This document shows, piece by piece, positions 1-50,880 of a stretch of 64,000 bases of DNA. Position numbers and translations under genes: made by a program. The stretch is from Minisyncoccota bacterium (GTDB taxonomy: Bacteria; Patescibacteriota; Minisyncoccia; Phycocordibacterales; UBA9973): assembly GCA_017991395.1 (NCBI GenBank), contig JAGOQQ010000005.1, positions 4,726-68,725 on the forward strand, read 5' to 3'. Under the pieces are notes generated by a model that was not told the origin of the DNA, did no database searches, and saw only the letters and a list, made by a program, of their open reading frames with translations. How positions within the stretch are numbered: position 1 is the first letter of the stretch; every line of letters begins with the position of its first letter.

Positions 1-1816
1 AGATCTTTTCAGATGAAATAATCATATTCTTCAAAGAAAAATTAAACGCACCAATAGAGCTTTCAAATCTCCTGACCAATAGACGCCTCATGAATTTTGA
101 AACGTTTACCTGAGCTTGTTTTATTTGTTGAATTTTTTCTTCAGGAGAAATGCCGTCTTCTTCGTATTCTTCAACTAATTTTTTCGCAAAACCAGACCCT
201 TCTTTTAAATAACTCAAAATCTTATATCGAACACCGCGAAAACCAACACTCCTGTCTTCGGGTGAAATTTTTTCTAGAGTGTTTGCATACAAATCAAACA
301 TTTCTCCCAAATCGTATTCTAGTAATTCAGGATCCTTAACTTTTGCAAAAGATACTCCTTGTGCTTTAAGGTCTTCTTTATATTCTTCAATTTCATCCAA
401 ATCCAATCTGGAACGTCTAATGATAAGGGGTTCTATCATTTTTCTCAATTCATCGGCAATTGAGTTTAATTCCACTTTAATCTCTGTGTCTTCAGATGAA
501 TTTTTACGCAACTCTCTTCTTACAGCTTTATATCTTTTGAACAGTGCATGAAAAGACATACTTAAGTTCTCTACGGTTCTAATTGTAGATTGACCCGGAG
601 TGCTAAATAGTTTTATAAGTGCGTAAATATCTTTTGGATCATTATTAAATGGTGTTGCAGAAAGAGCCATTACATAATGCCCCGCGCAAAGTCTATGCAA
701 CATTTTATAATTTTCAGTGTCCTCATTCCGGTGTTTATGCGCTTCGTCTAGAATGAAAAGAATTTTTCCAGTATCTGAGCCATGCCTATCTAATGCTTCC
801 TGAATTTTTCCTGTTGAATAAACTAATCCCTTAAAATCAAATTCAGACATATAATCCTTCCATTGATTTTCAAGATGAGGAGGAGCGATAACAATAGTTT
901 TAAGTCCTAAATTGTGTGCTATTGCTGATGCAATAATACTTTTTCCAAGCCCCACAACATCAGCAATAATTACTCCTCCAAATTTTTTGATTCGATCTAT
1001 CCCAAGATTAATTGCATCTTTTTGATATTTAAGATCAGAAAATTTACCTCCAGTTATATGTTTTGGAGTTTTCATGTCCTCAATTTCAGTAACAGAAAAA
1101 TACTCACTAAGTACTTTGTAATACATTAAGAGAGGATCTGGGAGAGAATAAAGCCATATTTTACTTTTTATCTCTTTTATAAAATTATCTGAAGACTCAA
1201 TATCAGTTATTGTTATATTATTTTCATCGTTCCAGTGATCTTCAAAATACGTAACCTGTTTATCATAATGGTGATTTTCTTCCAAAAGAATATTGAACTC
1301 TCTCTGTCCTTTTAAACCAGACTCACTAAGGTTACTGGATCCAATAACGACATATCCTTTTTGACCATCAGACGTATCAATTTTATTTAAAATATAAAAT
1401 TTTGAGTGATCTGGCTCAGCTGTCTTCTTAATTTGTAAACTACCATCTTTTATTTTGTCCAAAAAAATTTCAAACGCTTTTTGAGATTCTTCATTATCGA
1501 AGTAGTCCGTATCATTAAAGATTTGAGAAAAAGTATCTATATAGTCAGTTTTTGCTCCGGCACGAGAAGAAATATTTGTTTCAACCACATTAGAATCAAA
1601 ATTTAAATCTTTTAATACGGAAACTTTATCAATGATCTTCTTATCAATATCCATTCCAACTAAAATTCGGATTTGCTTGTCTTTTAATTCATTATGTAAA
1701 TCTTTAAATCCAGAAAAGTAGAAATAACCAACCAAGGCATCAATTTTGTCGCACTTTGGCAAAATTGATTTTAAGTTAGATGAAAGTGTATTTGTTCCAG
1801 TGTTTGTTATTGCCAT
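1..1816 (-). CDS. PLD-like (HKD) nuclease domain fused to SNF2-family helicase N-terminal domain. The gene is partial and its C-terminal part runs off the window start.
   Basis: Manual reverse translation from the ATG at 1816-1814. The N-terminal part has an HxK(x)4D(x)6GSxN motif (HSKFYILNKIDTSDGQKGYVVIGSSNLS). Further in are SNF2 motif I (DVVGLGKS), a DEAH box (LDEAHKHRNE) and motif III (LSATP). The reading frame stays open to position 1. The ORF is not in the supplied track because it is truncated by the window edge. Confidence 0.75.
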   Translation of the reverse strand, partial: MAITNTGTNTLSSNLKSILPKCDKIDALVGYFYFSGFKDLHNELKDKQIRILVGMDIDKKIIDKVSVLKDLNFDSNVVETNISSRAGAKTDYIDTFSQIFNDTDYFDNEESQKAFEIFLDKIKDGSLQIKKTAEPDHSKFYILNKIDTSDGQKGYVVIGSSNLSESGLKGQREFNILLEENHHYDKQVTYFEDHWNDENNITITDIESSDNFIKEIKSKIWLYSLPDPLLMYYKVLSEYFSVTEIEDMKTPKHITGGKFSDLKYQKDAINLGIDRIKKFGGVIIADVVGLGKSIIASAIAHNLGLKTIVIAPPHLENQWKDYMSEFDFKGLVYSTGKIQEALDRHGSDTGKILFILDEAHKHRNEDTENYKMLHRLCAGHYVMALSATPFNNDPKDIYALIKLFSTPGQSTIRTVENLSMSFHALFKRYKAVRRELRKNSSEDTEIKVELNSIADELRKMIEPLIIRRSRLDLDEIEEYKEDLKAQGVSFAKVKDPELLEYDLGEMFDLYANTLEKISPEDRSVGFRGVRYKILSYLKEGSGFAKKLVEEYEEDGISPEEKIQQIKQAQVNVSKFMRRLLVRRFESSIGAFNFSLKNMIISSEKI

Positions 1817-1820
1817 AAAT

Positions 1821-2042
1821 TTATTTCAAAAGTTCGCTACTGGAAATCCCAAGCGCTTTAGAAATTTTTTCTAAAGTTGAAAGAGTAGGATTCATTCGAC
1901 CATTTTCAATGTTGCTGATATATGCTCTATCAACACTCAAAGCGTTCGCAAGGTCTACTTGCGACATGTTTTTTTTCAAACGCCATTTTCTTAGGTTTTC
2001 CCCAAGTTTCTTTCCGGATGACATAAATGGATTATATTCCAA
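1821..2042 (-). CDS. XRE-family helix-turn-helix transcriptional regulator
   Basis: The sequence MSQVDLANALSVDRAYISNIENGRMNPTLSTLEKISKALG is a typical Cro/C1-type HTH. The stop codon lies 4 nt before the ATG of the downstream PLD-SNF2 gene. The likely true start is the internal Met at 2024, which is leaderless with respect to the -10 at 2031-2036. Confidence 0.8.
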   Translation of the reverse strand: MEYNPFMSSGKKLGENLRKWRLKKNMSQVDLANALSVDRAYISNIENGRMNPTLSTLEKISKALGISSSELLK

Positions 2043-2079: not shown

Positions 2080-2445
2080 GGGCATGTCCGCCCCGAATTT
2101 CGCCAAAAGAAAACGGATGGAGCAAGCGGAGGATTCCTCCCCAGACCCCTTCTCCTCCGCTTGCGAAATCCGAAATTAGCCGAGGTTTTGCGGAAACCAT
2201 ATCCCCAGAAAAATGCTTCCGCAAAACCGAGTCCGCATTGTATTCGTGCTTCCGTCCTTTTCCTTTTGGAAAAGCTCTGTGCTTCGCACAGAGGCGCTTC
2301 AGCGCAACGGATGCACGAGATTAGTCACTTTGCCGTTCGAAAAAAGTTCGAGCAAAGTGTACGATTAGAGCACTAAAACAGTAGTAAAAAGAAATGGTGA
2401 GATGTATCTGTATTTACCTCCTCTCCTAGACAGGAGAGGATTGAG
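2080..2445 (+). ncRNA. Candidate structured leader or ncRNA. It is GC-rich relative to its surroundings and has nested stems. The class is unknown.
   Basis: It lies downstream of the plus-strand promoter. There is a perfect 11-bp stem gcaagcggagg (2122-2132) with cctccgcttgc (2153-2163), nested inside cgaatttcgc...gcgaaatccg. A 12-bp stem joins ggttttgcggaa (2183-2194) with ttccgcaaaacc (2217-2228). An 8-bp stem joins ctctgtgc with gcacagag (2275-2293). The terminal hairpin cctctcct-agac-aggagagg (2421-2440) contains the RBS for the GTG start at 2446. I recognised no known riboswitch consensus. Confidence 0.35.
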
Positions 2446-2854
2446 GTGAGGTTGATTGTACATTCCATGAATAGAATAATTAACAACTCAAATAGAAAAA
2501 GTTTTCGTAAAGAGTTGCGGAAAAATCAAACTCCGCAAGAAATTATTTTATGGTCTAAGGTACGAAATAATCAAACTGGTTTTAAATGGCGCCGACAAGT
2601 AAGTATCGGCTCATATATTGCTGATTTTTACTGTAAGGAAAAATTCTTGGTAATAGAAATTGATGGTTCACAACACGAAGATGCTAAGCTTTATGACAAG
2701 CAAAGGGAGAAATTTTTTCAAAATTTAGGAATTAAAACTCTTCGCTTTTGGAACAACGAAATAAATACCAACATCGAAGGTGTGATGCTTAAAATTTATT
2801 CCGAATTATCAAATACACTACCTCACCCCAACCCTCTCCTGGCAAGGAGAGGGG
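2417..2854 (+). mobile_element. DUF559 ORF bracketed by ~35-bp hairpin-containing terminal inverted repeats. It may be a small selfish element.
   Basis: The left repeat is CCTCCTCTCCTAGACAGGAGAGGATTGAGGTGAGG (2417-2451). The reverse complement of the right repeat (2821-2854) is CCCTCTCCTTGCCAGGAGAGGGTTGGGGTGAGG. The two differ only in the loop and a few spacer bases. Confidence 0.35.
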
Positions 2855-2883
2855 GCACCCAAAAACTCAACACACCAAAATGA
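2446..2883 (+). CDS. DUF559 endonuclease-domain protein with a Vsr-like fold
   Basis: It contains FLVIEIDGSQHED ... LGIKTLRFWNNEI, a typical DUF559 core. It starts with GTG after the RBS AGGAGAGG. Its stop overlaps the miaA ATG (ATGA). The C-terminal 20 aa are encoded by the right inverted repeat. Confidence 0.65.
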   Translation: MRLIVHSMNRIINNSNRKSFRKELRKNQTPQEIILWSKVRNNQTGFKWRRQVSIGSYIADFYCKEKFLVIEIDGSQHEDAKLYDKQREKFFQNLGIKTLRFWNNEINTNIEGVMLKIYSELSNTLPHPNPLLARRGGTQKLNTPK

Positions 2884-3740
2884 AAGAAAAAGAACTCAAT
2901 CAAAAACCCAAAATCATCGTCGTCTGTGGACCTACCGCCACAGGCAAAAGCGACTATGCGGTCACTCTCGCCAAAAAAACTTCAGGTGAGATAATTTCTG
3001 CTGATTCACGCCAAGTCTACAAAGGACTTGATATTGGTAGTGGGAAAATAACAAAAAAAGAAATGCGTGGTGTTCCCCATCACCTTCTTGATGTTGTCTC
3101 ACCAAAAAAAGTTTTCACTGTCGAGCAATTTCAAAAACTCGGAAAGAAAGCAATTTCCAATATTTTGAAAAAAGGCAAAACTCCTATCATCTGCGGTGGA
3201 ACTGGATTTTATATTGACGCTCTAGTGTATGAATCAAACTTCCCTGCCGTTCCGCCAAACAAATCACTTCGTACACAACTTGAGAAAAAATCTGTTGAAG
3301 AATTGTTTGAACTTGTACAAGAAAAAGATCCAGAGCGCGCAGATACTATCGACAGCAAAAACAAAGTGCGACTCATTCGCGCACTTGAAATAATTGATGC
3401 TATAGGAAAAGTGCCTAATGTCAAAAAAGAATCTACATATGATGTGGAGTGGATTGGACTAGATTTCCCCGACGAAATTCTCAAGGAACGAATTCACAAC
3501 AGACTTCTCGCACGAATTAAAAAAGGAATGCTCAAAGAAGCACACAATTTGCATACACAAGGTCTCTCATGGAAAAGAATGCGTGAACTTGGACTCGAAT
3601 ATCGATTTATGGCAGATTACCTCACAGGAAAAATATCGAAAGATGAAATGATAACACTACTCGAAACGGCAATCTGGCAGTACGCAAAAAGACAGAGGAC
3701 TTGGTTTAAGAGGAACAAGGAGATACGGTGGGTGAAATAG
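2880..3740 (+). CDS. miaA: tRNA dimethylallyltransferase
   Basis: The P-loop is IIVVCGPTATGKS. The motifs SADSRQVYKGLDIGSGK and ICGGTGFYIDAL match MiaA. Confidence 0.9.
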   Translation: MKEKELNQKPKIIVVCGPTATGKSDYAVTLAKKTSGEIISADSRQVYKGLDIGSGKITKKEMRGVPHHLLDVVSPKKVFTVEQFQKLGKKAISNILKKGKTPIICGGTGFYIDALVYESNFPAVPPNKSLRTQLEKKSVEELFELVQEKDPERADTIDSKNKVRLIRALEIIDAIGKVPNVKKESTYDVEWIGLDFPDEILKERIHNRLLARIKKGMLKEAHNLHTQGLSWKRMRELGLEYRFMADYLTGKISKDEMITLLETAIWQYAKRQRTWFKRNKEIRWVK

Positions 3741-4822: not shown

Positions 4823-5020
4823 GGAGGATGAAGGAATCTTTCCTTGCAGGAACAGTATACCTTTTCGGTGGAGATGAAGGAATCGGTCACAAGTCTTTTT
4901 CTACTGAAAAAGCTCGCGACCCCGCCTCCCGCCGTCGCGGTCCGGCTTTCGATTCCTTCATCCCTCTCGCAATGATGATACAAAAAGACAGAGCGTTTAG
5001 CTCTGCCTTTTTGTTCATTG
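4823..5020. repeat. Array of tRNA-Trp 3'-end-derived fragments joined to conserved element-end sequences
   Basis: GGAGGATGAAGGAATC (4823-4838) is a direct copy of the tRNA-Trp acceptor and T-arm up to the T-loop. It is followed by the 29-mer TTTCCTTGCAGGAACAGTATACCTTTTCG (4839-4867), which recurs at 50578-50606. A second copy GGAGATGAAGGAATCG (4870-4885) is followed by GTCACAAG..TTTTTCT. An inverted partial copy lies at 4947-4965. Confidence 0.6.
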
Positions 5021-5091
5021 CGGGGGATGAAGGAATCGAACCCTCACCAAAGGTTTTGGAGACCTTCGTTCTACCACTAAACTAATCCCCC
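5021..5091 (-). tRNA. tRNA-Trp (anticodon CCA)
   Basis: Manual fold: acceptor gggggat/atccccc, anticodon stem aaggt/acctt, loop ctCCAaa, T-arm gaggg-ttcgatt-ccttc. CCA is not encoded. Confidence 0.8.
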
Positions 5092-5655: not shown

Positions 5656-5784
5656 GCCAATTTTTAATGAGCTTGCGTAGTATAAGCGATTGCTAAAAAT
5701 TGAGCATCTCGACTGAAAGGAGAGGCAAATCCTAATAATATATAAAAAATGAGCTACTGTTTTTTAAACAATAGCTCATTATAT

Positions 5785-6381
5785 TTAAAAGATTAAATCT
5801 CTTTTTTCTTTCAACAAATACTCAAACAATACAGCTCGAGTTCTATCTTCAGAAAATTTACGCTCAAGTAAAAGTTTAAATACTTCTTTGTACGTCATCT
5901 CAACAATTTCGATTCTTTCATCATCTTCAGGTCGAGGTTTTCCTTTCTGAAATTCTTCAACAAGATAATAATGCAAATCATGCTCAACGGTAGCAGACGA
6001 AGGAGAAACATAAAAAGGCTTCAGCCTTTCAATAAAAATACCAATCTCTTCTTTTGCTTCACGAATAATCGCATCACGAAGCATGTATTCATTCCCAGAA
6101 TTATCTGATCCGTCTTTTTCAAGAAAATCAAGATACTCACAAAGATTGTCGGCGACCTTTCCTCCAGTCAACCGATAATCCCACGGTTGATCAAGATATT
6201 CCCTTTTTTCTTTTTGAAAAATTAATCCTGTTTCTGTAGGAATTATTGCTCTTACCCCGGGAGATCTCCGGAAATATTCCTTGCCTTTTTCATTCTGAAG
6301 AACTTGTCCAATTTTTCCGTTAAACACAGGACTATATCCGTCGCGTGCATCAATTGCATAATTAATTGGTTTTATTTTCAT
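5785..6381 (-). CDS. NUDIX hydrolase
   Basis: It carries a Nudix box-like sequence, GGKV...E...LRDAIIREAKEEIGI. Confidence 0.6.
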   Translation of the reverse strand: MKIKPINYAIDARDGYSPVFNGKIGQVLQNEKGKEYFRRSPGVRAIIPTETGLIFQKEKREYLDQPWDYRLTGGKVADNLCEYLDFLEKDGSDNSGNEYMLRDAIIREAKEEIGIFIERLKPFYVSPSSATVEHDLHYYLVEEFQKGKPRPEDDERIEIVEMTYKEVFKLLLERKFSEDRTRAVLFEYLLKEKRDLIF

Positions 6382-6548
6382 AGTTATTATTTTTAAATAT
6401 TATATATAATTTTAAATATTTGTCAATATTATAAAATTGATTAGCAAACACTTTACATAAGTGTTTTCATGATACCAACTATGTAGCGCTTTGACTTCTT
6501 TGTTATTGACAGGAACTTTAAATATGTTATTATTGTGAAAAACCGAAC

Positions 6549-7091
6549 ATGAAAAAGGACCCTAGAATCAAGAATCTTGAAAGGATTCACAAAAAACTTC
6601 AATCAACTACCGATAGATTGGGAATGCCCATCGATAAGGGTATTTTTAATACTGTGAAGTACCTCAATGCACTGGGCTACAAAACATCAATGAGCTGTGA
6701 GGGGCATCTTAAAAAATCTGGAAAATTACCTAATGGCGGACTACCATTTCCTTGGGTGGTAATTGATTACGCTAATGACAATGCTGATTTGCAAAAAATG
6801 ACTGACAGCGAAAGGAAACTGTACAAAAAGAATCAACTAAAGAAATGTTTTCCTGTGATGAACGAAATATTAGGTCTTATTGATGAATTTTATAAAAACA
6901 GGCACCATGTGCCATCAATACACAAAATCACAGTAATACCATTTCATCAGGGAAAATTGCGCATTCAAAGTCTTTCTGGATACTTTATTGAAGCTCAACC
7001 AAAAAAAGTTCAATCTGAATGGTTTTTCATAACCAGTATGGAAATGCGATATTTTACAAAATTCTTAGGAATAAAGTACTTCTCAAAATAA
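6549..7091 (+). CDS. hypothetical protein
   Basis: It is a 180-aa ORF. A bidirectional terminator, atcccccttccgggggat (7100-7117), follows it. Confidence 0.45.
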   Translation: MKKDPRIKNLERIHKKLQSTTDRLGMPIDKGIFNTVKYLNALGYKTSMSCEGHLKKSGKLPNGGLPFPWVVIDYANDNADLQKMTDSERKLYKKNQLKKCFPVMNEILGLIDEFYKNRHHVPSIHKITVIPFHQGKLRIQSLSGYFIEAQPKKVQSEWFFITSMEMRYFTKFLGIKYFSK

Positions 7092-7127
7092 GTATTTAAA
7101 AATCCCCCTTCCGGGGGATTTTATAAT

Positions 7128-9824
7128 TTACATCGACTCCTTCTTGCTTCTTGTCTTTGCAATCGGGCTTTTTGTTTTTGATCTACGAGTATCTATGTGA
7201 AGTGCACCATCTTTTACCGACACGTACACCACATCACCCTTTTCTGCTCCCTTAGTAATGATATGTGATGCGACAGGATTCAAAATCTTTGTTTGAATCA
7301 GACGATTGAGTGGTCTTGCACCATACTGTGGATTGTACCCTTCCTTACCGAGCAGTTCGAGTGCTTCATCGGTGATTTGAAGTGCAATATCTTTTGCAGT
7401 CAATCGTGCGCGAACTTGCTCGATTCTGATTTCTACAATATTTCTAATTGATTGAGGTGAAAGAATATCGAATAGAATAATTTCATCAAGACGATTCAAA
7501 AATTCTGGGCGGAAATGATCTTTGAGACTTGTCATAACCTTTTCTTTTGTCTGAACATAATCATCTGTAGCGGTGTTGTTAGAAAATCCTATTGTCTCCA
7601 TTTTTTCAATATGCCGTGAACCAATGTTTGAAGTCAGAATAATTACAGAATTTCGGAAATTCACCACTCTTCCCTTTGCATCAGTGAGTCGTCCTTCATC
7701 AAGCACTTGAAGGAGAATATTGAATACTTCAGGATGAGCTTTTTCAATTTCATCAAACAAGATTACTGAGTACGGGCGATGTCGGACCGCTTCGGTAAGC
7801 TGACCTGATTCATCGTGTCCTACATATCCTGGTGGCGAACCCACAAGCTTTGACACACTGTGTCGCTCCATATACTCAGACATATCTACTCTAATAAGCG
7901 CCTTGTCATCATTGAAAAGAAATTGCGCGAGTGCCTTTGTGAGTTCTGTCTTTCCGACTCCTGTTGGACCAAGAAATATAAATGAACCGATTGGGCGATT
8001 TGGATCTGCGATTCCAGCACGTGAACGGCGAATCACATCAGATATTTTGGTAATTGCTTCACTTTGTCCTATCACACGTTTTGTGAGCTCTTCTTCCATT
8101 CGAGCAAGTTTTGCACGTTCTTCTTCCAGCATCTTTGCAAGAGGAATACCTGTCCATCGTGCGACAACTTCTGCAATATCTTCACTTGTAATTTCTTCTT
8201 TGAGAATACGACGAGATTTTTGGAGCTTCTTCAGTCGTCCGAGCTTCACGTCGAGTTCTTTTGAGAGAGTAGGAATTTTTCCATAACGAATTTCAGCTGC
8301 TCGAGCAAGGTCTGCACGCATTTCTGCTTGCTCAGCTTCTAGTCGGAGTGCATCCAAATCTTTTTTGATTGTCCGAATCTCTGTGACGGTAGTTTTCTCG
8401 TTTTGCCACTTGAGTTCAATTTCTCGAGTTTTTTCTTTGTGGTTTGCAATTTCTTTATCAATATCTTTGATACGATTTTTTGTTCCCTTGTCTTCTTTGT
8501 CGGCAAGTTCAACTTCTTTTTTCAATGCTTCTTTTTCGATTTCAAGTCGCATAATTTTGCGATGGGCTTCATCGAGAATTGGAGGTTTATTTTCAAGTGC
8601 AATCCGAAGAGAAGATGCTGCTTCGTCTATGAGGTCGACAGCTTTGTCAGGAAGATTTCGATTTGTGATGTATCGTACAGAGAGATTGACCGCAGATTGA
8701 ATCGCGTCATCCGTAATACGCACGCCGTGATAGAGTTCATATTTTTCTTTGAGTCCACGCAAAATAGCAGTCGCGTCCTCAGGTGATGGTTCTTCTATGT
8801 AGACAGGCTGAAATCGCCGAGCGAGGGCTGGATCCTTTTCAATGTGTTTTTGATATTCTTTAAGAGTTGTTGCTCCGATTGCACGAAGTTCTCCGCGTGA
8901 GAGTGCCGGCTTGAGCATGTTTGATGCATCAAGTGAACCTTCTGAAGCCCCTGCGCCTACGATAGTATGAATTTCATCAATAAAAAGAATAATCTTTCCA
9001 TCAGCACGTTCGATTTCTTTCATGAGTGATTTCAATCGCTCTTCAAATTCTCCGCGGTATTTTGTACCTGCAATAAGTGAGCCCAGATCAAGAGAAACAA
9101 GCTCTTTGTCTTTCAAAGATTCTGTAACATCACCTTTGGCGATGCGTTGTGCCAATCCTTCTACTACTGCAGTCTTACCTGTACCGGGTTCTCCAATCAA
9201 AATTGGATTGTTTTTTGTACGACGTGAAAGAATCTGCATAATCCGCATTATTTCTGTATCGCGTCCAATCACAGGATCAAGCTTGTCTTCTTTTGCAAGT
9301 TTTGTAAGATTGCGAGTGTATTTTGTGAGTACTCGAAACTTTTTTGGAGAATTTGTGTCGGTAATATTTTGAGCTTTGAATTCTTCGACAATTTTCAGCA
9401 CTTGATCTTTGCTAATTCGGAAACGAGTGAGAAGTTCTTTTGCATCACTTGGAACTTCGAGAAGTGCAACAAAAATATGTTCTGTTGATACAAATTCATC
9501 TTTCAAATATCCTGCGACTTTGCTTGATGTTTCGATGACTTGTGCGAGGTCAGGCGTGAGGTACAGCTGAAACGAGGGTGACGCAACATTGTTGACGCGA
9601 GATTCAGGTGCTTCGATATTTTCAAGTACCGAATCAGTAAGAAGCATCGAATCTATCTCGAGTCGTTCGATGATTGAAAGCACCATAGACTCCTCTTGTA
9701 AAAGGAGTGCGGTGAGAAGATGAAAAGAGTTCACATGGTTTTGACCTCGCTCAATAGCGAGTTCGTGTGCCTTCTTGATAGCTTCTTTTGCTTTTGATGT
9801 GAAGTGATTGAATGGAGGCATCAT
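7128..9824 (-). CDS. clpB: ATP-dependent chaperone ClpB (Clp/Hsp100 AAA+ family)
   Basis: It has an N-terminal Clp N domain, two AAA+ modules ([16 protein letters not shown]) and a long coiled-coil middle domain between them. Confidence 0.9.
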
Positions 9825-9862
9825 ATAGTGTGATTATATAATTTTATTAAAAAATGTCAAAC

Positions 9863-10600
9863 CTACAACCCAAACGTATTTTTCAATTCAGCACCGAAAA
9901 TAACGAGTCCTGTGGTGTCTGTGGCAAGTAATACTCCGAGTGCTTTTCCCTCTTTGTTGACCACGAGTGCGCCTGACTTCATTTGTGGAATAGATGTAAG
10001 CTCTATTCTGGTTCCATAGCCGTCATCTGGCGAGACTGTTTTGACATATACTTTGTCAAACGAAAGAGGATTGCCTTCAATGACGTAAAGCTCATCCCCT
10101 GAAACTGGAGTAGGTGCGTCAAATGTGACAAATTTTTCTGAAGTGATTTTCTTTGATGATTCAAAAAAAGTGATTCGCTCAAGGCTTGAAGACGCGGGGA
10201 TTTTTTGTTCAACACCTGCAACAAGTGAAGCGTATTCCTTTTTTAACTCAATCAACGTTCCTTCACTTATGTACGAGAGCAACTTCCCTTTCGACACCAT
10301 TACGAGTGGGCGAGAAAGTGTCTTTGTGTCATCAAGATATAGTATGCCTACAGAATCCTTGTATTTTGCAACAATATCCGAAGCCGAAAGCGGTGCGGGC
10401 ACAACTGGTATTTCTGGTGTCACCGGTGCAGGATTTGGGTTAAATGTATCTTTGACGACTTGATAGATAGTCTGCGTCACCGGGACTGAACGTTGTTCCA
10501 TGACAGACACTACAGCAATTGCCGTGACAATTGCGGTGACAAAACTTATAAGAAGTCCAAGTAAAATTAATTGTGTTTTTGTAAGATCATTAATATCCAT
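9863..10600 (-). CDS. Hypothetical membrane-anchored protein. Its C-terminal region weakly resembles a trypsin-like peptidase.
   Basis: It has an N-terminal TM segment. MKSGALVVNKEGKALGVL resembles GNSGGPLVN..G.VIGI. The track ORF extends to 10651, but an internal Met start at 10600 avoids overlap with iscS. Confidence 0.4.
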   Translation of the reverse strand: MDINDLTKTQLILLGLLISFVTAIVTAIAVVSVMEQRSVPVTQTIYQVVKDTFNPNPAPVTPEIPVVPAPLSASDIVAKYKDSVGILYLDDTKTLSRPLVMVSKGKLLSYISEGTLIELKKEYASLVAGVEQKIPASSSLERITFFESSKKITSEKFVTFDAPTPVSGDELYVIEGNPLSFDKVYVKTVSPDDGYGTRIELTSIPQMKSGALVVNKEGKALGVLLATDTTGLVIFGAELKNTFGL

Positions 10601-10610
10601 ACTATTAGTT

Positions 10611-11864
10611 CTAACGATTTTTTGCCAAAATCGTGATTGATTGATTTGCAAGATCGACTACATCGCGAAGCGCACGAACAAAGTACACCAAATCTTTTTT
10701 TTCTGTCTGTCGTCCGAGTGTTATTCGCAAGCTACCATCTTCAGGTTTAATTTCTTTCGATAGTGCCATTATAACATGAGACGTGTGTTCGTCTAACGCA
10801 TTGCATGCACTTTTTGAGGATACACGAACACCTTTTGCATCAAGTCCAATCACGAGTGCGTCACTTTCGATTCCATGAAATGTAAAATTGATATTGTTTG
10901 GAAGTCGCAGTGTCTCATGACCATTGAGCTCGGCACCTGGAAACTCTTTTCGAATTTCTTTAATCAAAAAATCTCGAAGTATCGTCAGTCGCTTCACTTC
11001 CTTTTCTTTTATTTTTTCAGCAAGCAAAAGTGCCTGCGCAAAACCAAGTATTCCTGGAATATTTTCTGTTCCTGGTCTTACATCAAATTCTTGTTCACCA
11101 CCTTTCATTATTCCTGAAAATGGAAGTCCGCGTTTTTTGTAGAGCATTCCAACACCTTTTGGACCGTAAATCTTTGAACCATTACAACTAAGCATATCTA
11201 CTCCCAAAGGTGGGACTCGAAGTGGCAAATAATTCACGGCTTGTGTGGCATCTGTGTGGAAAACTGGATACGGTCCAGAAATTTCATTATGCTTTTTGAA
11301 ATGTCGAATTGCTTTTGCAATTTCCGAAATCGGCTGGATTGTACCAATCTCATTGTTTGCATACATCACCGAAACAAAAATCGTATCCTTGGTCAGTGCA
11401 TCGCGGACATCTTTTGGATTTACTATTCCGTCTTTGTCGACAGGAATAAGAGTGACATTGACACCACTTGATCTTATAAACTTTGCAGATTCAAAAAGCG
11501 CTGAATGTTCGATTGCAGAAATAATGATATGTGGATTCTTTGTGGTTTCTTTTGATTTCAGCAAATATCCTTCGAGTATTCCACTAATCGCCATATTGTC
11601 GCTTTCAGTTCCACTTCCGCAAAAAATAATCTCATCCGAATGCACATCAAACACACCCGCCACATCTTTGCGGGCTCTAGTCAGGGCTTCTTTTGCACGA
11701 AGTCCATCTTTGTGCAATGCACTTGGATTGCCAAAATACACCTCACTCGCTTTTTTAACGACTGAAATGACCGACGGATCAATGGGTGTATTTGATGCAT
11801 AATCAAGATATACACTTTTTTCGATTTTCTTTGATTTTGTTGTTTTTCGTGTGGTTGTTGCCAT
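10611..11864 (-). CDS. iscS: cysteine desulfurase (class V aminotransferase; IscS/NifS family)
   Basis: It contains SGTESDNMAI, HTDATQA and the active-site region SCNGSKIYGPKGVGMLY. Confidence 0.85.
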   Translation of the reverse strand: MATTTRKTTKSKKIEKSVYLDYASNTPIDPSVISVVKKASEVYFGNPSALHKDGLRAKEALTRARKDVAGVFDVHSDEIIFCGSGTESDNMAISGILEGYLLKSKETTKNPHIIISAIEHSALFESAKFIRSSGVNVTLIPVDKDGIVNPKDVRDALTKDTIFVSVMYANNEIGTIQPISEIAKAIRHFKKHNEISGPYPVFHTDATQAVNYLPLRVPPLGVDMLSCNGSKIYGPKGVGMLYKKRGLPFSGIMKGGEQEFDVRPGTENIPGILGFAQALLLAEKIKEKEVKRLTILRDFLIKEIRKEFPGAELNGHETLRLPNNINFTFHGIESDALVIGLDAKGVRVSSKSACNALDEHTSHVIMALSKEIKPEDGSLRITLGRQTEKKDLVYFVRALRDVVDLANQSITILAKNR

Positions 11865-11874
11865 AATTTCTATT

Positions 11875-11903
11875 TATTGCAAAAATGATGATTTTGCACT
11901 ATA
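11875..11903 (+). promoter_or_regulatory. sigma70-type promoter for the infB operon
   Basis: TTGCAA (11875-11880), a 17-nt spacer, then TATAAT (11898-11903). Confidence 0.55.
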
Positions 11904-11915
11904 ATCTATGTCTAT

Positions 11916-12371
11916 ATGATAGCAAATACATCAATTATCCTCTATGGGGCAATAGTACTACTTGTCATTAATATCATATGGCTTGTCAGAATGGAAATGA
12001 GACTCAAAAAAGTCTTCCGTGGAAAACGCGCCCAAGACCTTGAAGAAATCATGTCGGGACTTCGAAAAGACATCGACACACTTCACACATTAGAGCGAGA
12101 TCTTGATGTTCGCTCAAAAAATATGGACGCGCGTATTCGTACAAGCCTACGTGGAATTGATACTATCAGATTTAATCCATTCAAAGATCAAGGAAGCAAC
12201 CAAAGTTTTGCAATTGGACTTTTGAATGAAGAAGGAACTGGTGTAGTCATCTCTAGTCTTTATTCACGAGACAGAGTTTCGGTATTTGCAAAACCAATCA
12301 AAAAAGGTCAGCCCGAGTACGACCTGACCGAAGAAGAATCAATCGTATTCAAAAACGCATTACCAAAATAA
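11916..12371 (+). CDS. Small membrane protein. DUF4446-like is a tentative call.
   Basis: It has an N-terminal TM. It sits in an operon position ahead of infB. Confidence 0.4.
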   Translation: MIANTSIILYGAIVLLVINIIWLVRMEMRLKKVFRGKRAQDLEEIMSGLRKDIDTLHTLERDLDVRSKNMDARIRTSLRGIDTIRFNPFKDQGSNQSFAIGLLNEEGTGVVISSLYSRDRVSVFAKPIKKGQPEYDLTEEESIVFKNALPK

Positions 12372-12385
12372 TTTACTAAAAAAAT

Positions 12386-13891
12386 ATGAACACTAAAGGA
12401 GTCACTGTACGTCCTCCTGTTGTTGTCATTATGGGTCACATTGACCATGGCAAATCAACACTATTGGACTACATTCGAAAATCAAACATAGTGGACAAAG
12501 AAGCGGGTGGTATCACTCAGCATCTTTCTGCATATGAAGTGATTCATAAAGACGAAAAAGGAGAAAGTCGCAAAATTACTTTTCTTGATACTCCAGGACA
12601 TGCAGCATTTTCTGGTATGCGTGAACGTGGCGCAACAGTAGCAGACATTGCAATATTGATTGTATCTGCAGAAGACGGCGTCAAGGCTCAAACTATTGAA
12701 GCATTAAATACTATTGTAGAAGCAAAAGTTCCCTACCTCGTTGCGATCAACAAAATCGACCGACCTGGAGCAAACGTGGAGAAAGCAAAAATGGAATTGA
12801 TGGAAAAAGGTGTGTATCTCGAAGGATATGGCGGAAATATTCCATATGTTGAAATTTCTGCAAAGGCTGGGACAAACATTCCTGCACTTCTCGATACAAT
12901 CTTACTTGTTGCTGATATGGAAAACTTCACAGGCGACATGTCAAAAACCGCGCGCGGTATTGTGATCGAATCAAACATGGATCCAAAGCGTGGAATTTCT
13001 GCGACAATGGTGATTAAAGATGGAACACTTTCAAAAGGAATGTTTTTGGTTGTAGAAGACGCAATTGTTGCAACTCGCATTATGGAAGATTTTCTCGGAA
13101 AAACTATTTCTGAAGTTTCGATGTGTGCACCTGTGCGACTGATTGGTTTTGATAAAGTTCCTGCGGTAGGATCAGTGTTTGAATCTTTTAATTCAAAAAA
13201 AGAAGCTGAATCTGCTGTTGCACTCTACAAAGAGATACTTCGCACAGGAACTTCAACTGTCAAAAAAGAATTACTATCACCAGACACGAAAGTTATTCCA
13301 ATTGTCATCAAGACTGATGTGGTGGGAACTGGTGAAGCAATTGAAAAAGAAATACTAAAAATGAACACTTCAGAAATTTCATTCAAAATTCTTTCTCGTG
13401 GAGTTGGCTCTATTGGTGAAAATGATCTCAAAGCTGTAAGTGGTGACAAAGAAGCATTGATAGTGGGATTCAACGTCAAAATCGACTCAAAGGCCGAAAA
13501 CTTAAACGAATCATTGCAAATCCCAGTTCACACATACACAATCATTTACAAGCTCACAGAGATGCTTGCAGAACTTATTGAAGAACGCCGACCACGCAAG
13601 CAAGTCATGGAAGTTGTAGGAAAAACAAAAGTACTGAAAACATTTAGTGCGACAAAAGAACGGCGTGTGATCGGTGGACGTGTGGAATCAGGCAAACTCG
13701 CACAGGGTCACAAAGTAAGAATAATGCGACGTGATTTTGAAATCGGCGAAGGTGTAATCATTGGTGTAGAACAAGGAAAAATTAAGTCAAAAGAAGTACT
13801 CGAAGGAAACGAGTGCGGAATCCTGGTTGAAGCAAAAAATGAAATCGCACCCGGTGATTATCTTGAATCTTTTGTGATGACGACAAAATAA
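12386..13891 (+). CDS. infB: translation initiation factor IF-2 (short form lacking N-terminal domains)
   Basis: The G domain has [12 protein letters not shown] and DTPGHAAF. The C-terminal IF2 domains are present. Confidence 0.9.
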
Positions 13892-16042: not shown

Positions 16043-16468
16043 CACGAATTAAAAAGAAGAACTTCTTCTTGTTTTTAGTTCGTGTCCAAGCCGCAGTAAT
16101 GTTTTTGTTTGAGCGAAGCGAAAGGCAAAAACCACGAGGCGGGCTCGCGAAATTTTTACGTCAGTAAAAATATTTGTGAGGACACGTAGTAGCAAGAACT
16201 TCTTCTTGTTTTTAGTTCGTGTCCAAGCCGCAGCGATGTTTTTGTTTGAGCAAAGCGAAAGGCAAAAACCGCGAGGCGGGTGAGAAAGTGTGGGACACTT
16301 TCGCAAGACCTTTTGAGAATTTTTGTGAGCGAGCGAAACAAAAAGTCCAAAAGGTGTACAGAATCTGTAAGATTCGCGAAATTTTTACGTCAGTAAAAAT
16401 ATTTGTGAGGACACGTAGTAGCAAGAACTTCTTCTTGTTTTTAATTTAAAAAAAGATAGTAACAATAT
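16043..16468. repeat. Tandem ~140-bp direct repeats (about 2.5 copies) with hairpin modules between two tRNA genes
   Basis: aagaacttcttcttgttttta occurs three times (16063-, 16203-, 16420-). gttcgtgtccaagccgcag..gtttttgtttgagc.aagcgaaaggcaaaaacc.cgaggcggg occurs twice. cgcgaaatttttacgtcagtaaaaatatttgtgaggacacgtagtagcaag occurs twice. The first hairpin pairs with the tRNA-Lys 3' end (tggacacgaa / ttcgtgtcca). Confidence 0.7.
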
Positions 16469-16550
16469 GCTCGGGTGGCGTAATTGGTAGCCGCGTCAGT
16501 CTTAGGAACTGGTGGAGAAATCCGTGGAGGTTCAAGTCCTCTCCCGAGCA
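16469..16550 (+). tRNA. tRNA-Leu (anticodon TAG)
   Basis: The acceptor is gctcggg/cccgagc. The anticodon stem tcagt/actgg has loop ctTAGga. It has a long variable arm and the T-arm ggagg-ttcaagt-cctct. Confidence 0.75.
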
Positions 16551-16976
16551 CAACGAAAAATAATGAACCCAATGCGAGAGCATTGGGTGATTTATTTTTA
16601 TGCTCGGGAGAGGACTTGAAAGCCGGAGGCGGTATACAAGACGCAGCGAAGCGAAGTGCTTGTCGCCGAGGCGGGGTCGCGAGTACTTAGTAGAATTTGA
16701 GCTGGCGAAAAATTATACTTAGTAACTCGTGACCAAGACACTGCTTGGCTTGCGCGAGAGGACTTGAAAAGGTTCTCCCATATTTTTGTGAGCCTGCGAA
16801 CAAAAATGGGAAACCTGTACTGCTCCTGTAAGGAGAAAATCCTCTCCTGGACACTATCCCAAATTCTCGTGACCAAGTCCCCTCCCGACGACCACTGAAA
16901 TTATACTTAGTAACCTGTGACCAAGACATCCCAATACGCAAATTAAAAACACCCGAACTCACGTACGGGTGTAAAT
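16551..16976. repeat. Non-coding repeat region carrying inverted T-loop-truncated copies of the tRNA-Leu(TAG) 3' end and other short repeats
   Basis: The terminator hairpin cccaatgcgagagcattggg is followed by gctcgggagaggacttgaa (16601-16619), the rc of the T-arm and acceptor. A second copy gcgagaggacttgaa lies at 16755-16769. attatacttagtaac.tgtgaccaagaca occurs twice (16713-, 16897-). Confidence 0.55.
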
Positions 16977-27957: not shown

Positions 27958-28506
27958 ATGACATCTCGTAAAACACCAAAAACAAAAACCCGAGTTCGCC
28001 CACGCCTTGAGCGCTGGACAGAAAATGCTATTAGCTGGGTCGGCTCAAAAAACTCAGTTGCGGTACATACCGTCTTTTTTATAGGGATGTTTCTTTTGAT
28101 ATTCCTTGGGGTAAAACCTGAGACAGTACTACTTGTACTTACGACAATTGTGTCACTCGAAGCGATCTACTTGGCAATCTTCATTCAAATGACCGTCAAC
28201 AAAAACACATTCGATATTGAAGAGATTCAAGAAGACGTGGAAGAAATTCAAGAGGATGTGGAAGAGATTCAGAAAGATGTCGATGAGATTCAAGAGGATG
28301 TGGATGAAATTCAAGAAGACGTCGAAGAAATTCAGGAAGACGTGGAAGAAATTCAAGAGGATGTTGATGAGATTCAGGAAGATGTTGACGAGATCGAAAA
28401 AGAAGAAGAGACAGCAGAACAAAAGCATGACCGCGAACTTCTCACAAAGATTGAAGGAACACTTGGAATTTTAATCAAAGAAATTGAACAGTTGAAAAAG
28501 AAATAA
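27958..28506 (+). CDS. Membrane protein (2 TM, DUF1003-like) with an acidic C-terminal heptad array
   Basis: The array is (E/D)EIQEDV x9, encoded by 21-bp tandem repeats at ~28219-28395. A terminator, ccccgcacacgtgcgggg, follows at 28510-28535. Confidence 0.55.
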   Translation: MTSRKTPKTKTRVRPRLERWTENAISWVGSKNSVAVHTVFFIGMFLLIFLGVKPETVLLVLTTIVSLEAIYLAIFIQMTVNKNTFDIEEIQEDVEEIQEDVEEIQKDVDEIQEDVDEIQEDVEEIQEDVEEIQEDVDEIQEDVDEIEKEEETAEQKHDRELLTKIEGTLGILIKEIEQLKKK

Positions 28507-50503: not shown

Positions 50504-50880
50504 GGGTGAATGATATCACGAAAATACAGGACTCTCGACTACCGTCGCGGGTACTTCACTTATTTAGTACAGGACTCTTTCCTTACAGGAACAGTATACC
50601 TTTTCGATTTTCTCAGAGCACAGCTCTTCGTAAATAGCGAAAAGCTTTTCGAGTCCTGACGCAGAGTCTCCCAGACTCTGCTTACGGTCCACGCAAGAAA
50701 AAAGGCCTAACAAAAGTTAGGCTCTTTTTTCAAAGTGTGGACTTCTCTACACAAGAATTGAATCAACAGGATGATACCAAAAAGAGCTATAAATGGCCTA
50801 ATGTCCTGCCTAGAAACTTAGAAGAGGAAGAGTTATTCTGGAAACAGGTATATGATGATGTAATAGAGTTAGCATCGATA

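Follow-up and report, generated by a model that had tools for sequence, protein, structure and literature searches.

In a 64,000-nt stretch of contig JAGOQQ010000005.1 from a low-GC Paceibacteria/Nomurabacteria genome (hereafter the window), a spacer of ~400 nt separates an XRE-family helix-turn-helix gene from a divergently oriented gene of the DUF559 family, which is followed by the tRNA-modification gene miaA. The question raised by this locus is what the GC-rich, strongly folding DNA within the spacer stands for, since an earlier note, made from the letters alone, had taken positions 2080-2445 for a riboswitch-like leader of DUF559-miaA. Comparison with related metagenome contigs identifies positions 2088-2373 as one copy of a previously undescribed modular, GC-rich and hairpin-rich repeat family in Paceibacteria, which belong to the candidate phyla radiation (CPR) bacteria. 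We take the copy in the window to form the right-hand arm of an island of defence genes (XRE, PLD-SNF2 helicase, Eco57I-type methylase and nuclease) upstream of miaA. With a probability of roughly 0.6, we read the units of this family as outward-facing inverted arms of accessory-gene cassettes, linked to XRE genes, large serine recombinases and tRNA ends, whose hairpins act in folded form, with the transcript slightly favoured as the molecule in which they do so.

The folded unit in the window

The GC content reaches 57% in 100-nt windows across positions 2050-2375, compared with 38.8% as the mean of the window and 28-38% in the flanks. The fold of 2070-2450 has an energy of -147.6 kcal/mol versus -97.6 +/- 5.9 kcal/mol after shuffling (z = -8.4; none of 100 shuffles equal), the minus strand of the same region folds as well (z = -8.8), and 2076-2376 by itself gives z = -6.9, so that the GC-rich and well-folding character noticed earlier is borne out. 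The 360 nt that had been flagged are made up of three unrelated parts, namely promoter and operator sequences at 2031-2079 that the divergent XRE gene also uses, the 286-nt unit at 2088-2373, and the repeat of a DUF559 insertion from 2420 onwards. The limits of the unit, 2088 (CCGCCCCGAATTTCGCC...) and 2373 (...TACGATTAGAGCAC), were set by its homologues. Similarity to the closest copy, in contig L172, ends at GAGCAC, and an intrinsic terminator follows 16 nt further on in that contig; the junction between the unit and the DUF559 insertion (2374-2419, plus strand) held no conserved feature when compared with L172, L035 and L004.

All elements of the unit are described on the plus strand. It opens with an inner boundary and 5′ leader at 2088-2121 (CCGCCCCGAATTTCGCCAAAAGAAAAC...), which is kept in all subfamilies and at which duplicated pairs start. 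Hairpin H1 (2114-2172) has a perfect 12-bp stem (2122-2133/2153-2164) and a 19-nt loop (TTCCTCCCCAGACCCCTTC), and is nested in an outer helix of CGGAT (2114-2118) with ATCCG (2168-2172); H2 (2184-2228) has a perfect 12-bp stem (2184-2195/2217-2228) closed by the loop ACCATATCCCCAGAAAAATGC. A variable module at 2245-2317, replaced by other modules in most copies, is folded here into a three-way junction that is 96.5% common with L172 and only partially with L095 and L112, and H4 (2326-2359) is formed by CACTTTGC paired with GCAAAGTG. The perfect stems reported earlier, including the one within an outer helix, are thus all present. A long-range helix between GAAUUUCGC in the leader and GCGAAAUCC after H1 is possible. 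The core of the H1 loop, CCTCCCCAGACCCCTCC, is a perfect pyrimidine-rich mirror repeat in most family copies, and the window loop (2134-2152) carries one substitution in it (CCTCCCCAGACCCCTTC). Its complement is a run of G-tracts (GGAGGGGTCTGGGGAGG), and, judged from the letters, either the mirror repeat or the G-tract run could adopt a non-B DNA or RNA structure.

A scan of the whole window against Rfam 15 at gathering thresholds returned no family for the 286-nt unit, a scan of 1950-2550 at E <= 10 returned chance microRNA and small nucleolar RNA matches only, and no Rfam family was found for the L004 and L035 copies either, in agreement with the failure of the earlier note to recognize a known riboswitch core. 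ARAGORN found no tRNA or tmRNA in the 2080-2445 region. The intrinsic-terminator scan found none within 2080-2445, the plus strand being without a U-tract after H1, H2 or H4; on the minus strand UUUUCUUUU follows H1, but the H1 loop is 19 nt long. A decayed or small protein gene, the outcome that the earlier note had set against its own proposal, was examined and rejected: a 155-aa open reading frame (1909-2376) is open, yet the frame is not conserved between copies. Subfamilies and L035 differ from one another by indels of 1-2 nt, which rules out a coding function for the unit.

Family size, covariation and unit anatomy

At least 120 metagenome stretches matched a 21-base pattern drawn from leader sequence and the upper part of H1, the covariance model R1 recovered 83 copies in the 80 loci searched, and blastn with three subfamily representatives yielded 127 copies in ~95 loci, with up to 3 copies within 9 kb (L124, L125). 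No match to the unit was obtained by blastn in 50,697 phage and 72,556 plasmid records, nor by pattern search in viral contigs, and the element was not described in the full-text literature or preprints searched.

The structure, and not only the sequence, is conserved. In H1, pairing is kept in 96.7% of cells and 7 of the 12 pairs are changed on both sides, which none of 500 shuffles equalled; doubly changed cells number 75 versus 19.5 in the shuffles, and slid controls are 45-60% paired. Three stem versions (A, GCAAGCGGAGGA; B, GCCCGCGCGGA; C, GCAAATGGAAAA) carry one common 19-nt loop, TTCCTCCCCAGACCCCTCC. The H2 stem exists in 24 distinct versions, such as GGTTTTGCGGAA, CGAAGTTTTGGCAAA and CCGCACCCCGCC, all with the loop TCC..CCCCAGAAAA, and its pairs comprise 293 Watson-Crick, 3 G.T and 1 A.C, 7 of the 15 pairs being changed on both sides. 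For the leader, H1 and H2 aligned together (42 sequences), none of 500 shuffles reached the observed covariation, and pairing amounts to 90% versus 37-53% in slid controls. The earlier expectation of compensatory changes among homologues therefore holds for H1 and H2, which form an unclassified conserved structure. The motif CCCCAGA is kept in the C-rich loops of both hairpins while the stems vary, and the G/A state of the two loop motifs switches together between subfamilies. Wobble pairs in H1 number 19 G.T versus 9 A.C, most of the G.T coming from three hybrid copies, and the corresponding figures for H2 are 3 versus 1.

The units follow a fixed order, consisting of the inner boundary CCCGCCCGAA, the leader TTTCGCCAAAAGAAA, H1, a linker, H2, a variable middle and a conserved 3′ module. 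In the window and L172 the middle is formed by the three-way junction, in most copies other modules take its place, and deletions affect it in L035, whereas the loop of H1 or H2 contains inserts of ~85 nt in some copies; accordingly, unit lengths fall at 166-197, 251-288 (286 in the window), ~371, ~412 and 601 nt. Alignment of 21 distinct 3′ modules gave the consensus T(T/C)GAAA-17-(TGn)TAnAAT, then (A)GCAC or ACACCACC, after which the flanks diverge at once. This module has sigma-70 promoter geometry, with an extended -10 in subfamily B, and is directed away from the 5′ end of the unit; in the window it occupies 2326-2373 (plus strand), with TCGAAA at 2337-2342, a 17-nt spacer, TACGAT at 2360-2365 and GAGCAC at 2368-2373. 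The 5′ and 3′ ends of the unit are unrelated, forming no terminal inverted repeats, and no target-site duplication was found at the L004 pair.

Other small GC-rich repeat modules are plentiful in the same genomes. A 36-46-nt repeat (AGGA.TCTTTCCTT.CAGGAACAGTATACCTTTTCG) occurs in the window at 4832-4867, 50571-50606 and, on the minus strand, 16803-16848, and a relative of it is inserted in the H2 loop of arm L124_1703. Repeats of another kind stand at 28177-28424 of the window, where an open reading frame (27958-28506) contains about nine or more 21-nt units in tandem that code for acidic heptads of the EEIQEDV type.

Inverted pairs, cargo and transcription context

Twenty-eight outward-facing inverted pairs were found, each with a minus-strand copy on the left and a plus-strand copy on the right, so that the 5′ ends face each other across 1.8-8 kb of enclosed DNA. 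The inverted arrangement is real, because pairs internal to contigs occur in L004, L101, L124, L136, L163, L167 and L179. Most pairs enclose a single operon whose genes hardly ever recur from pair to pair: examples include a type I restriction-modification system, a P-type ATPase with a glycosyltransferase, PPDK with a histidine phosphatase, an ABC transporter, SAM hydroxide adenosyltransferase (SAM-HAT) with glycosyltransferases, and LD-carboxypeptidase/HIT/NadD-like genes. The sole recurring cargo gene is an XRE gene of ~70 aa at the operon head, and at least 16 loci have a homologue, 30-92% identical to that of the window, next to the 5′ end of a unit and in divergent orientation.

On their 5′ side, 53 copies start no more than ~40 nt past the stop codon of a co-oriented gene and ~58 face a divergent gene; a -10 box (TATAAT, TATACT or TACTAT) lies 10-15 nt upstream of the copies adjacent to XRE or other divergent genes, and next to XRE genes a promoter with its operator stands 8-15 nt ahead of the unit. 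These classes of 5′ neighbour therefore place the plus strand of every arm in a transcribed position. Judged from gene layout, the plus strand of one arm would form the 3′ untranslated region of the cargo transcript, and that of the opposite arm the leader of a transcript from the XRE-side promoter. Canonical terminators stand directly past the unit in L172 and L179.

The defence island in the window

The cargo beside the window unit is headed by the XRE gene (1821-2024, minus strand; 67 aa from the ATG at 2024; Pfam HTH_3, E = 4e-19), for which a TTG at 2042 is also open as a start. It is followed by the N-terminal 605 aa of a PLD-SNF2 helicase (1-1816, minus strand; translation with Pfam PLDc_2, SNF2-rel_dom and ResIII), which is 1088 aa long in the overlapping contig L203. 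This 12.5-kb contig is identical to the window in the overlap, has the same single arm and adds 6.5 kb of cargo (5752-12500); its cargo consists of the XRE gene (67 aa), the PLD-SNF2 helicase (1088 aa), an Eco57I/TaqI_C N6-methylase (1048 aa) and the start of another gene. In a further contig, L206 (103-7483), the cargo is 96% identical to that of the window and has a PD-(D/E)XK nuclease in addition; an arm of another kind (CCCGCCYGAAGCCCCATCGCCATACC...) closes the contig on either side, in inverted copies. That arm has no more than its initial 10 nt (CCCGCCYGAA) in common with the window unit, and homology between the window and L206 stops at ~2083, right before the CCGCCC motif. The comparison therefore indicates that orthologous cargo sits between inverted arms and that arms are swappable at the inner boundary. 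Related helicase-methylase cargo is also found in L204, in another type of island with a serine recombinase and no arms. The operon, with its XRE gene, fused PLD-SNF2 helicase, Eco57I/TaqI_C N6-methylase and PD-(D/E)XK nuclease, looks like a restriction- or DISARM-like defence system.

A promoter-like site for XRE lies at 2031-2059 on the minus strand (TTGTAA, 17 nt, TATAAT; 10 of 12 matches in the promoter scan). Back to back with it, a second promoter-like site points into the unit at 2044-2072 on the plus strand, with TTGCAT at 2044-2049, a 17-nt spacer and TATAAT at 2067-2072, and the operator-like 15-bp palindrome ATTACA-ACG-TGTAAT (2053-2067) lies between its hexamers. The earlier note had placed a consensus promoter just upstream of the region; the -10 box is indeed perfect, but consensus is too strong a word because the -35 box matches TTGACA at 3 of 6 positions, and the site is absent from the promoter scan listing. 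This site belongs to the cargo/XRE side, and the layout of promoter and operator recurs in L095, L138 and L172. The unit in the window is probably transcribed from 2044-2072 toward DUF559-miaA. The XRE ATG stands 7 nt past its own -10 box (2024-2036, minus strand).

Serine recombinase, tRNA ends and the tRNA-Leu/miaA slot

Beyond the outer end of one arm, a co-oriented large serine recombinase of 408-546 aa (Pfam Resolvase, Recombinase and Zn_ribbon_recom domains) is found in 9 loci, at a distance of 450-1100 nt and usually ~450-500 nt. In four contigs its gene lies between inverted repeats of 115-155 nt that are 73-100% complementary (L163, 5083-5206/6690-6813; L153, 120-234/1704-1818; L169, 2443-2597/4104-4258; L098, 3786-3911/5961-6086), and a tRNA gene stands on the far side of the recombinase in the same four. 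The distal arm of this repeat starts at the tRNA 3′ end and the proximal arm at the outer end of the unit, an arrangement in which the recombinase may be an insertion-sequence-like unit or its gene may be invertible. In L169, the repeat arm that abuts the tRNA 3′ end also codes for the C-terminal ~60 aa of the recombinase.

In three of the four loci (L163, L153 and L169), identity to the tRNA trailers starts at bases common to the tRNA and the unit ends. In L163, tRNA-Ala reads ...GCTCCACCA|TTCCGAATTTG... and the unit ...AAACACCACCA|TTCCGAATTTG..., and the bases shared by the two ends are CCACCA, with CACA in L153 and CGCCA in L169. Thus the outer end of the unit appears to take the place of the tRNA 3′ end. 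The unit end in the window, GAGCAC, resembles the 3′ end of tRNA-Leu (GGCACA or GAGCACA). Perfect 48-bp palindromes of the form CCACCA...TGGTGG stand just past some outer ends (L179, L152); these palindromes and H1 (12+19+12 bp) are candidates for attachment (att) sites of the large serine recombinase.

Most of the 28 relatives scanned have the order tRNA-Leu(caa), miaA, tRNA-Trp, with a gap between tRNA-Leu and miaA of 0-2.5 kb, no more than ~300 nt in many of them. This variable gap appears to be an insertion hotspot, and the slot holds other, unrelated DNA in L007, L013, L022, L026, L027, L029 and L030. In the window, miaA and tRNA-Trp (5020-5091, minus strand) are present, and the island arm lies upstream of miaA.

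Further tRNA-derived sequence occurs elsewhere in the window. Partial copies of the 3′ half of tRNA-Trp (GATGAAGGAATCG) adjoin this gene at 4828-5020, and two of them make a 13-bp stem around a GC-rich module of ~65 nt (4886-4950). The module occurs in at least 8 other Paceibacteria genomes (L078, L029, L046, L032, L027, L015 and others) and resembles the H1-loop insert of some arms; the sequence at 4828-5020 may represent remains of an att site or a further mobile module. Around tRNA-Lys and tRNA-Leu(tag), at 16044-16470 and 16590-16900, there are duplicated blocks of 73-87 nt (16057/16194; 16145/16374) as well as inverted and direct partial copies of the tRNA-Leu 3′ end (GAGAGGACTTGAA), and 16278-16372 matches inserts within arms of L152 (100% over 41 nt) and L124.

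The DUF559 insertion and miaA

The hairpin that had been regarded as sequestering the ribosome-binding site exists at 2420-2439 and contains AGGAGAGG, but it is outside the unit, because comparison with L172, L035 and L004 ends the unit at 2373. It forms part of the left inverted repeat of the DUF559 insertion (2420-2451, plus strand), in which the hairpin CCTCTCCT-AGAC-AGGAGAGG is followed by ATT-GAGGTGAGG. The right inverted repeat (2821-2852, plus strand; CCTCACCCC-AAC-CCTCTCCT-GGCA-AGGAGAGG) lies within the 3′ end of the DUF559 reading frame, and a pattern search for this hairpin repeat gave 2 matches versus 0 expected. The gene between them (2467-2883, plus strand) encodes a Vsr-like endonuclease fold (Pfam DUF559, E = 3e-34), and gene callers place its start at ATG 2467, not at the GTG at 2446 assumed earlier. 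Given this start and the pairing of the hairpin with a right-hand copy, the supposed Shine-Dalgarno platform therefore belongs to a separate small insertion. The hairpin with the GGGTGAGGTTGATT motif also occurs twice in L054, another Paceibacteria genome (1345-1385 and 1937-1977), away from DUF559 genes; these copies combine the hairpin (CCTCTCCT-NNNN-AGGAGAGG) and the GGGTGAGG motif with a TTGATT tail. By its layout, the hairpin-bracketed DUF559 gene looks like a small mobile DUF559 cassette or a case of a separate palindromic repeat family.

The neighbouring miaA (2880-3740, plus strand; Pfam IPPT, E = 5e-68) is a core gene beside the island, and its product is 69% identical to the best match among GTDB representative genomes. 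In L035 and L004 no DUF559 gene lies between the unit and miaA, and the unit stops 4-5 nt before the miaA ATG; this ATG is 11-12 nt past the -10 box of the arm promoter (3240-3262 in L035; 3975-3997 in L004). The miaA mRNA of these two contigs and the XRE mRNA of the window are likely leaderless or near-leaderless. An element specific to miaA was considered and rejected, as the unit is present only in L035 and L004 (two copies) among 80 miaA loci and the closest relatives carry tRNA-Leu in that place.

Proposed mechanism and alternative explanations

The inner end of an arm (CCCGCCCGAA...) abuts the cargo, either at the stop codon of the last gene or at the XRE promoter region, and the outer end presents a sigma-70-like promoter pointing out of the island, then 4-6 nt identical to a tRNA 3′ end. 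In the mechanism that we propose, the arms would be borders prone to recombination, where new combinations of cargo, arms and flanks arise. Each arm, lying as it does where transcription passes, would also hand island transcription to the displaced neighbour, in the window from 2044-2072 and/or 2337-2365 into DUF559-miaA. The displaced neighbour could in this way be kept expressed, be it DUF559-miaA here or the near-leaderless miaA in L035 and L004. The hairpins would function in single-stranded, folded form. A role in the transcript, as a 3′-end or leader structure in which the two identical C-rich loops bind a factor, is slightly favoured, though we hold this part of the reading only tentatively and at less than even odds.

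Several observations weigh against this reading. The 64-kb window has one copy only, and L203 stops inside the cargo, so that the left arm, the recombinase and the tRNA-Leu of the window's island are not reached. Contigs break within the repeat, ~30-100 nt beyond H1, and the orientation bias of pairs at contig ends is for this reason partly an assembly effect. The palindromic contig L163 and the opposite orientations in L084 and L138 may likewise be assembly artefacts; they were set aside as evidence for cassette inversion, since an assembler has no means of telling which way round a segment lies when the inverted repeats on its two sides are identical. Both promoters (2044-2072 and 2337-2365) are consensus matches only, and an outward promoter looks pointless where a terminator adjoins the unit, as in L172 and L179. 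The match to tRNA 3′ ends covers 4-6 nt only. Finally, the near-absence of G.U pairs (3 of 297 in H2) is unusual under purely RNA-level selection and fits DNA palindromes.

This last point leads to the explanation that the units are folded-DNA recombination sites, cruciform or single-stranded, at which the neighbouring large serine recombinase or an unseen enzyme would exchange or invert cassettes, with crossovers at the inner CCCGCC boundary and/or in the H1 loop and with transcription through the arms as an incidental matter; we regard it as rather unlikely in itself, yet only a little less probable than the role in the transcript. The stems are nearly all Watson-Crick, with G.T and A.C equally rare. 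Homology ends in the H1 loop directly after CCCCAG in at least 8 copies, with inserts of ~85 nt at the same point; in three independent copies H1 is a hybrid whose 5′ arm is of type A and whose 3′ arm is of type C, the two meeting in the loop, and in two copies (L121_3087-, L189_226-) the loop is inverted. Inner and outer flanks assort independently: the outer flanks were unrelated in 13 of the 18 comparisons with matching inner flanks (70-98% alike), the converse was also seen, and the window and L138 have the XRE gene and arm in common, beyond which stand DUF559-miaA in the window and a recombinase in L138. Furthermore, one cargo occurs between different arm families sharing only CCCGCCYGAA, the recombinase adjoins in 9 loci, and the 48-bp CCACCA...TGGTGG palindromes lie past some outer ends. 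As read from the contigs, flank assortment, hybrids, breakpoints, inverted loops and scarce wobbles favour DNA-level events, signs that may be weakened by metagenome contigs being chimeric, or arbitrarily oriented, at repeats (L163, and L084 versus L138). Large serine recombinases, however, use duplex sites of ~40-60 bp and are not known to need hairpins; the inverted repetition of the arms extends through the loop, so that inversion and not excision would be expected, many pairs are heterotypic, and the H1-loop inserts are mutually homologous and could stem from one inherited event.

If the unit acts as RNA, it could instead be a stand-alone regulatory RNA gene under XRE control, whose C-rich loops CCUCCCCAGA and UCCCCAGAAAA would bind G-rich targets such as Shine-Dalgarno sequences, or a protein, or else a put-type processive antitermination RNA through which island transcripts would read out. 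The promoter and operator palindrome upstream of XRE-adjacent copies, the conserved loops on covarying stems, the joint G/A change of the two loop motifs and the terminators after the unit in L172 and L179 would suit such a gene, which we nonetheless consider improbable: about half of the copies start after a stop codon without a promoter of their own, the unit has no conserved terminator within it, module content and length vary (166-600 nt), G.U pairs are nearly absent and no target was identified. Slightly less credible still is a selfish repeat resembling miniature inverted-repeat transposable elements (MITEs) or repetitive extragenic palindromic (REP) sequences, mobilised in trans, without a role for island or host, and tolerated at operon borders. 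Multiple copies, intergenic position, modularity, the tendency to break assemblies and the abundance of other small GC-rich modules in the same genomes are what it would predict, but the unit has no terminal inverted repeats and no target-site duplication at L004, keeps a strict polarity (inner end to cargo, promoter end outward) and is linked to XRE, recombinase and tRNA ends. An RNA from the minus strand, starting at the extended -10 of the outer end (GTGCTCTAAT, GTGCTGTAAT) and ending at H1 with the U-tract GUUUUCUUUUGGCG, is quite improbable. That strand is G-rich and folds slightly better, the A-rich leader, conserved in composition in all subfamilies, would supply a U-tract after the extended H1 helix, and one loop-proximal A.C of the window-type H2 would become G.U; against this, a 19-nt loop is atypical for an intrinsic terminator, minimum-energy folds often lack H1, the H1 hybrids pair via G.U on the plus strand only, and the -35/-10 geometry is much better on the plus strand. 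The dedicated ligand-sensing leader of DUF559-miaA with a Shine-Dalgarno-sequestering hairpin, as originally proposed, has very little left to recommend it. It has in its favour a conserved unclassified structure, an upstream promoter and a hairpin (2420-2439) containing AGGAGAGG, but at least 127 copies stand beside unrelated genes, often after stop codons and in inverted pairs, no more than 3 of about 80 miaA loci carry the unit, the hairpin is not part of the unit but of the DUF559 insertion and is found again in L054, the L035 and L004 units end 4-5 nt before the miaA ATG with no platform, and the stems are perfect and invariant within subfamilies, unlike aptamers.

Significance and comparison with known systems

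CPR bacteria (Patescibacteria) have tiny genomes, and their acquisition and shuffling of accessory and defence genes are poorly understood. The family described here marks the borders of variable cassettes in many groundwater and sediment Paceibacteria, gives metagenome searches a sequence handle (CGCCAAAA...GGATTCCTC) on such cassettes and the cargo within them, and accounts for one class of assembly breaks. If the arms are recombination substrates, they would represent a new cassette-exchange mechanism tied to large serine recombinases, enzymes that serve as tools of genome engineering; should they act as RNA, they would form a new and abundant class of structured RNAs, marked by two identical C-rich loops. 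A bolder and unlikely proposal, which we put forward as speculation, is that the arms are the working sites of a new CPR cassette system analogous to integrons or dif modules, in which XRE-headed cargo would be exchanged or inverted by a large serine recombinase entering at tRNA 3′ ends and the hairpins would be read as folded nucleic acid. If true, it would be the first serine-recombinase system dependent on structured sites or on an arm-encoded RNA. For annotation, the locus is a caution that GC-rich, well-folding intergenic islands of AT-rich genomes are not automatically riboswitches.

The units are like riboswitch leaders in their conserved covarying structure and in standing downstream of a promoter in the window copy, but differ in having no aptamer match, no link to a gene class and no conserved expression platform, and in their perfect stems, invariant loops and copies after stop codons. 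Likeness is also found in the BOX elements of Streptococcus pneumoniae and the Correia elements of Neisseria, which are intergenic repeats of modular build that form hairpins and can carry promoters. Like them, the units are multi-copy, intergenic and modular, form stable stem-loops at operon borders and possibly carry outward promoters; unlike them, they are longer (166-600 nt), have a fixed polarity, form inverted pairs around cassettes, and are linked to XRE, a large serine recombinase and tRNA 3′ ends. They also depart from the definition of a MITE, being without terminal inverted repeats and, at the L004 pair, without a target duplication.

Invertible segments of the Hin/Gin type share the inverted arms and the adjacent recombinase, but the enzyme here has 408-546 aa versus ~190 aa for the invertases. 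The pdif (Xer) modules of Acinetobacter plasmids have inverted sites, those of XerC/D being 28 bp long, and the attC sites of integrons have covarying stems used as folded single-stranded DNA, occur in direct orientation and measure 57-141 nt. As in both systems, cargo is bounded by what may be recombination sites and appears to reassort between backbones. No 28-bp Xer sites were seen, the linked enzyme being a large serine recombinase, and no tyrosine recombinase (IntI) but only the serine one was found among the cargo and flanking genes scanned against Pfam; unlike integron sites, the arms are mostly inverted pairs. Classical tRNA islands have short direct repeats at their ends and no structured inverted arms of 200-600 nt, and they also differ from the present system in that its recombinase unit stands beyond one arm, between inverted repeats of its own. 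With tRNA-targeting islands the cassettes nevertheless have in common a recombinase beside a tRNA gene, at the distal junction a few bases that may be a copy of the tRNA 3′ end, and variable cargo, held here in the tRNA-Leu/miaA slot.

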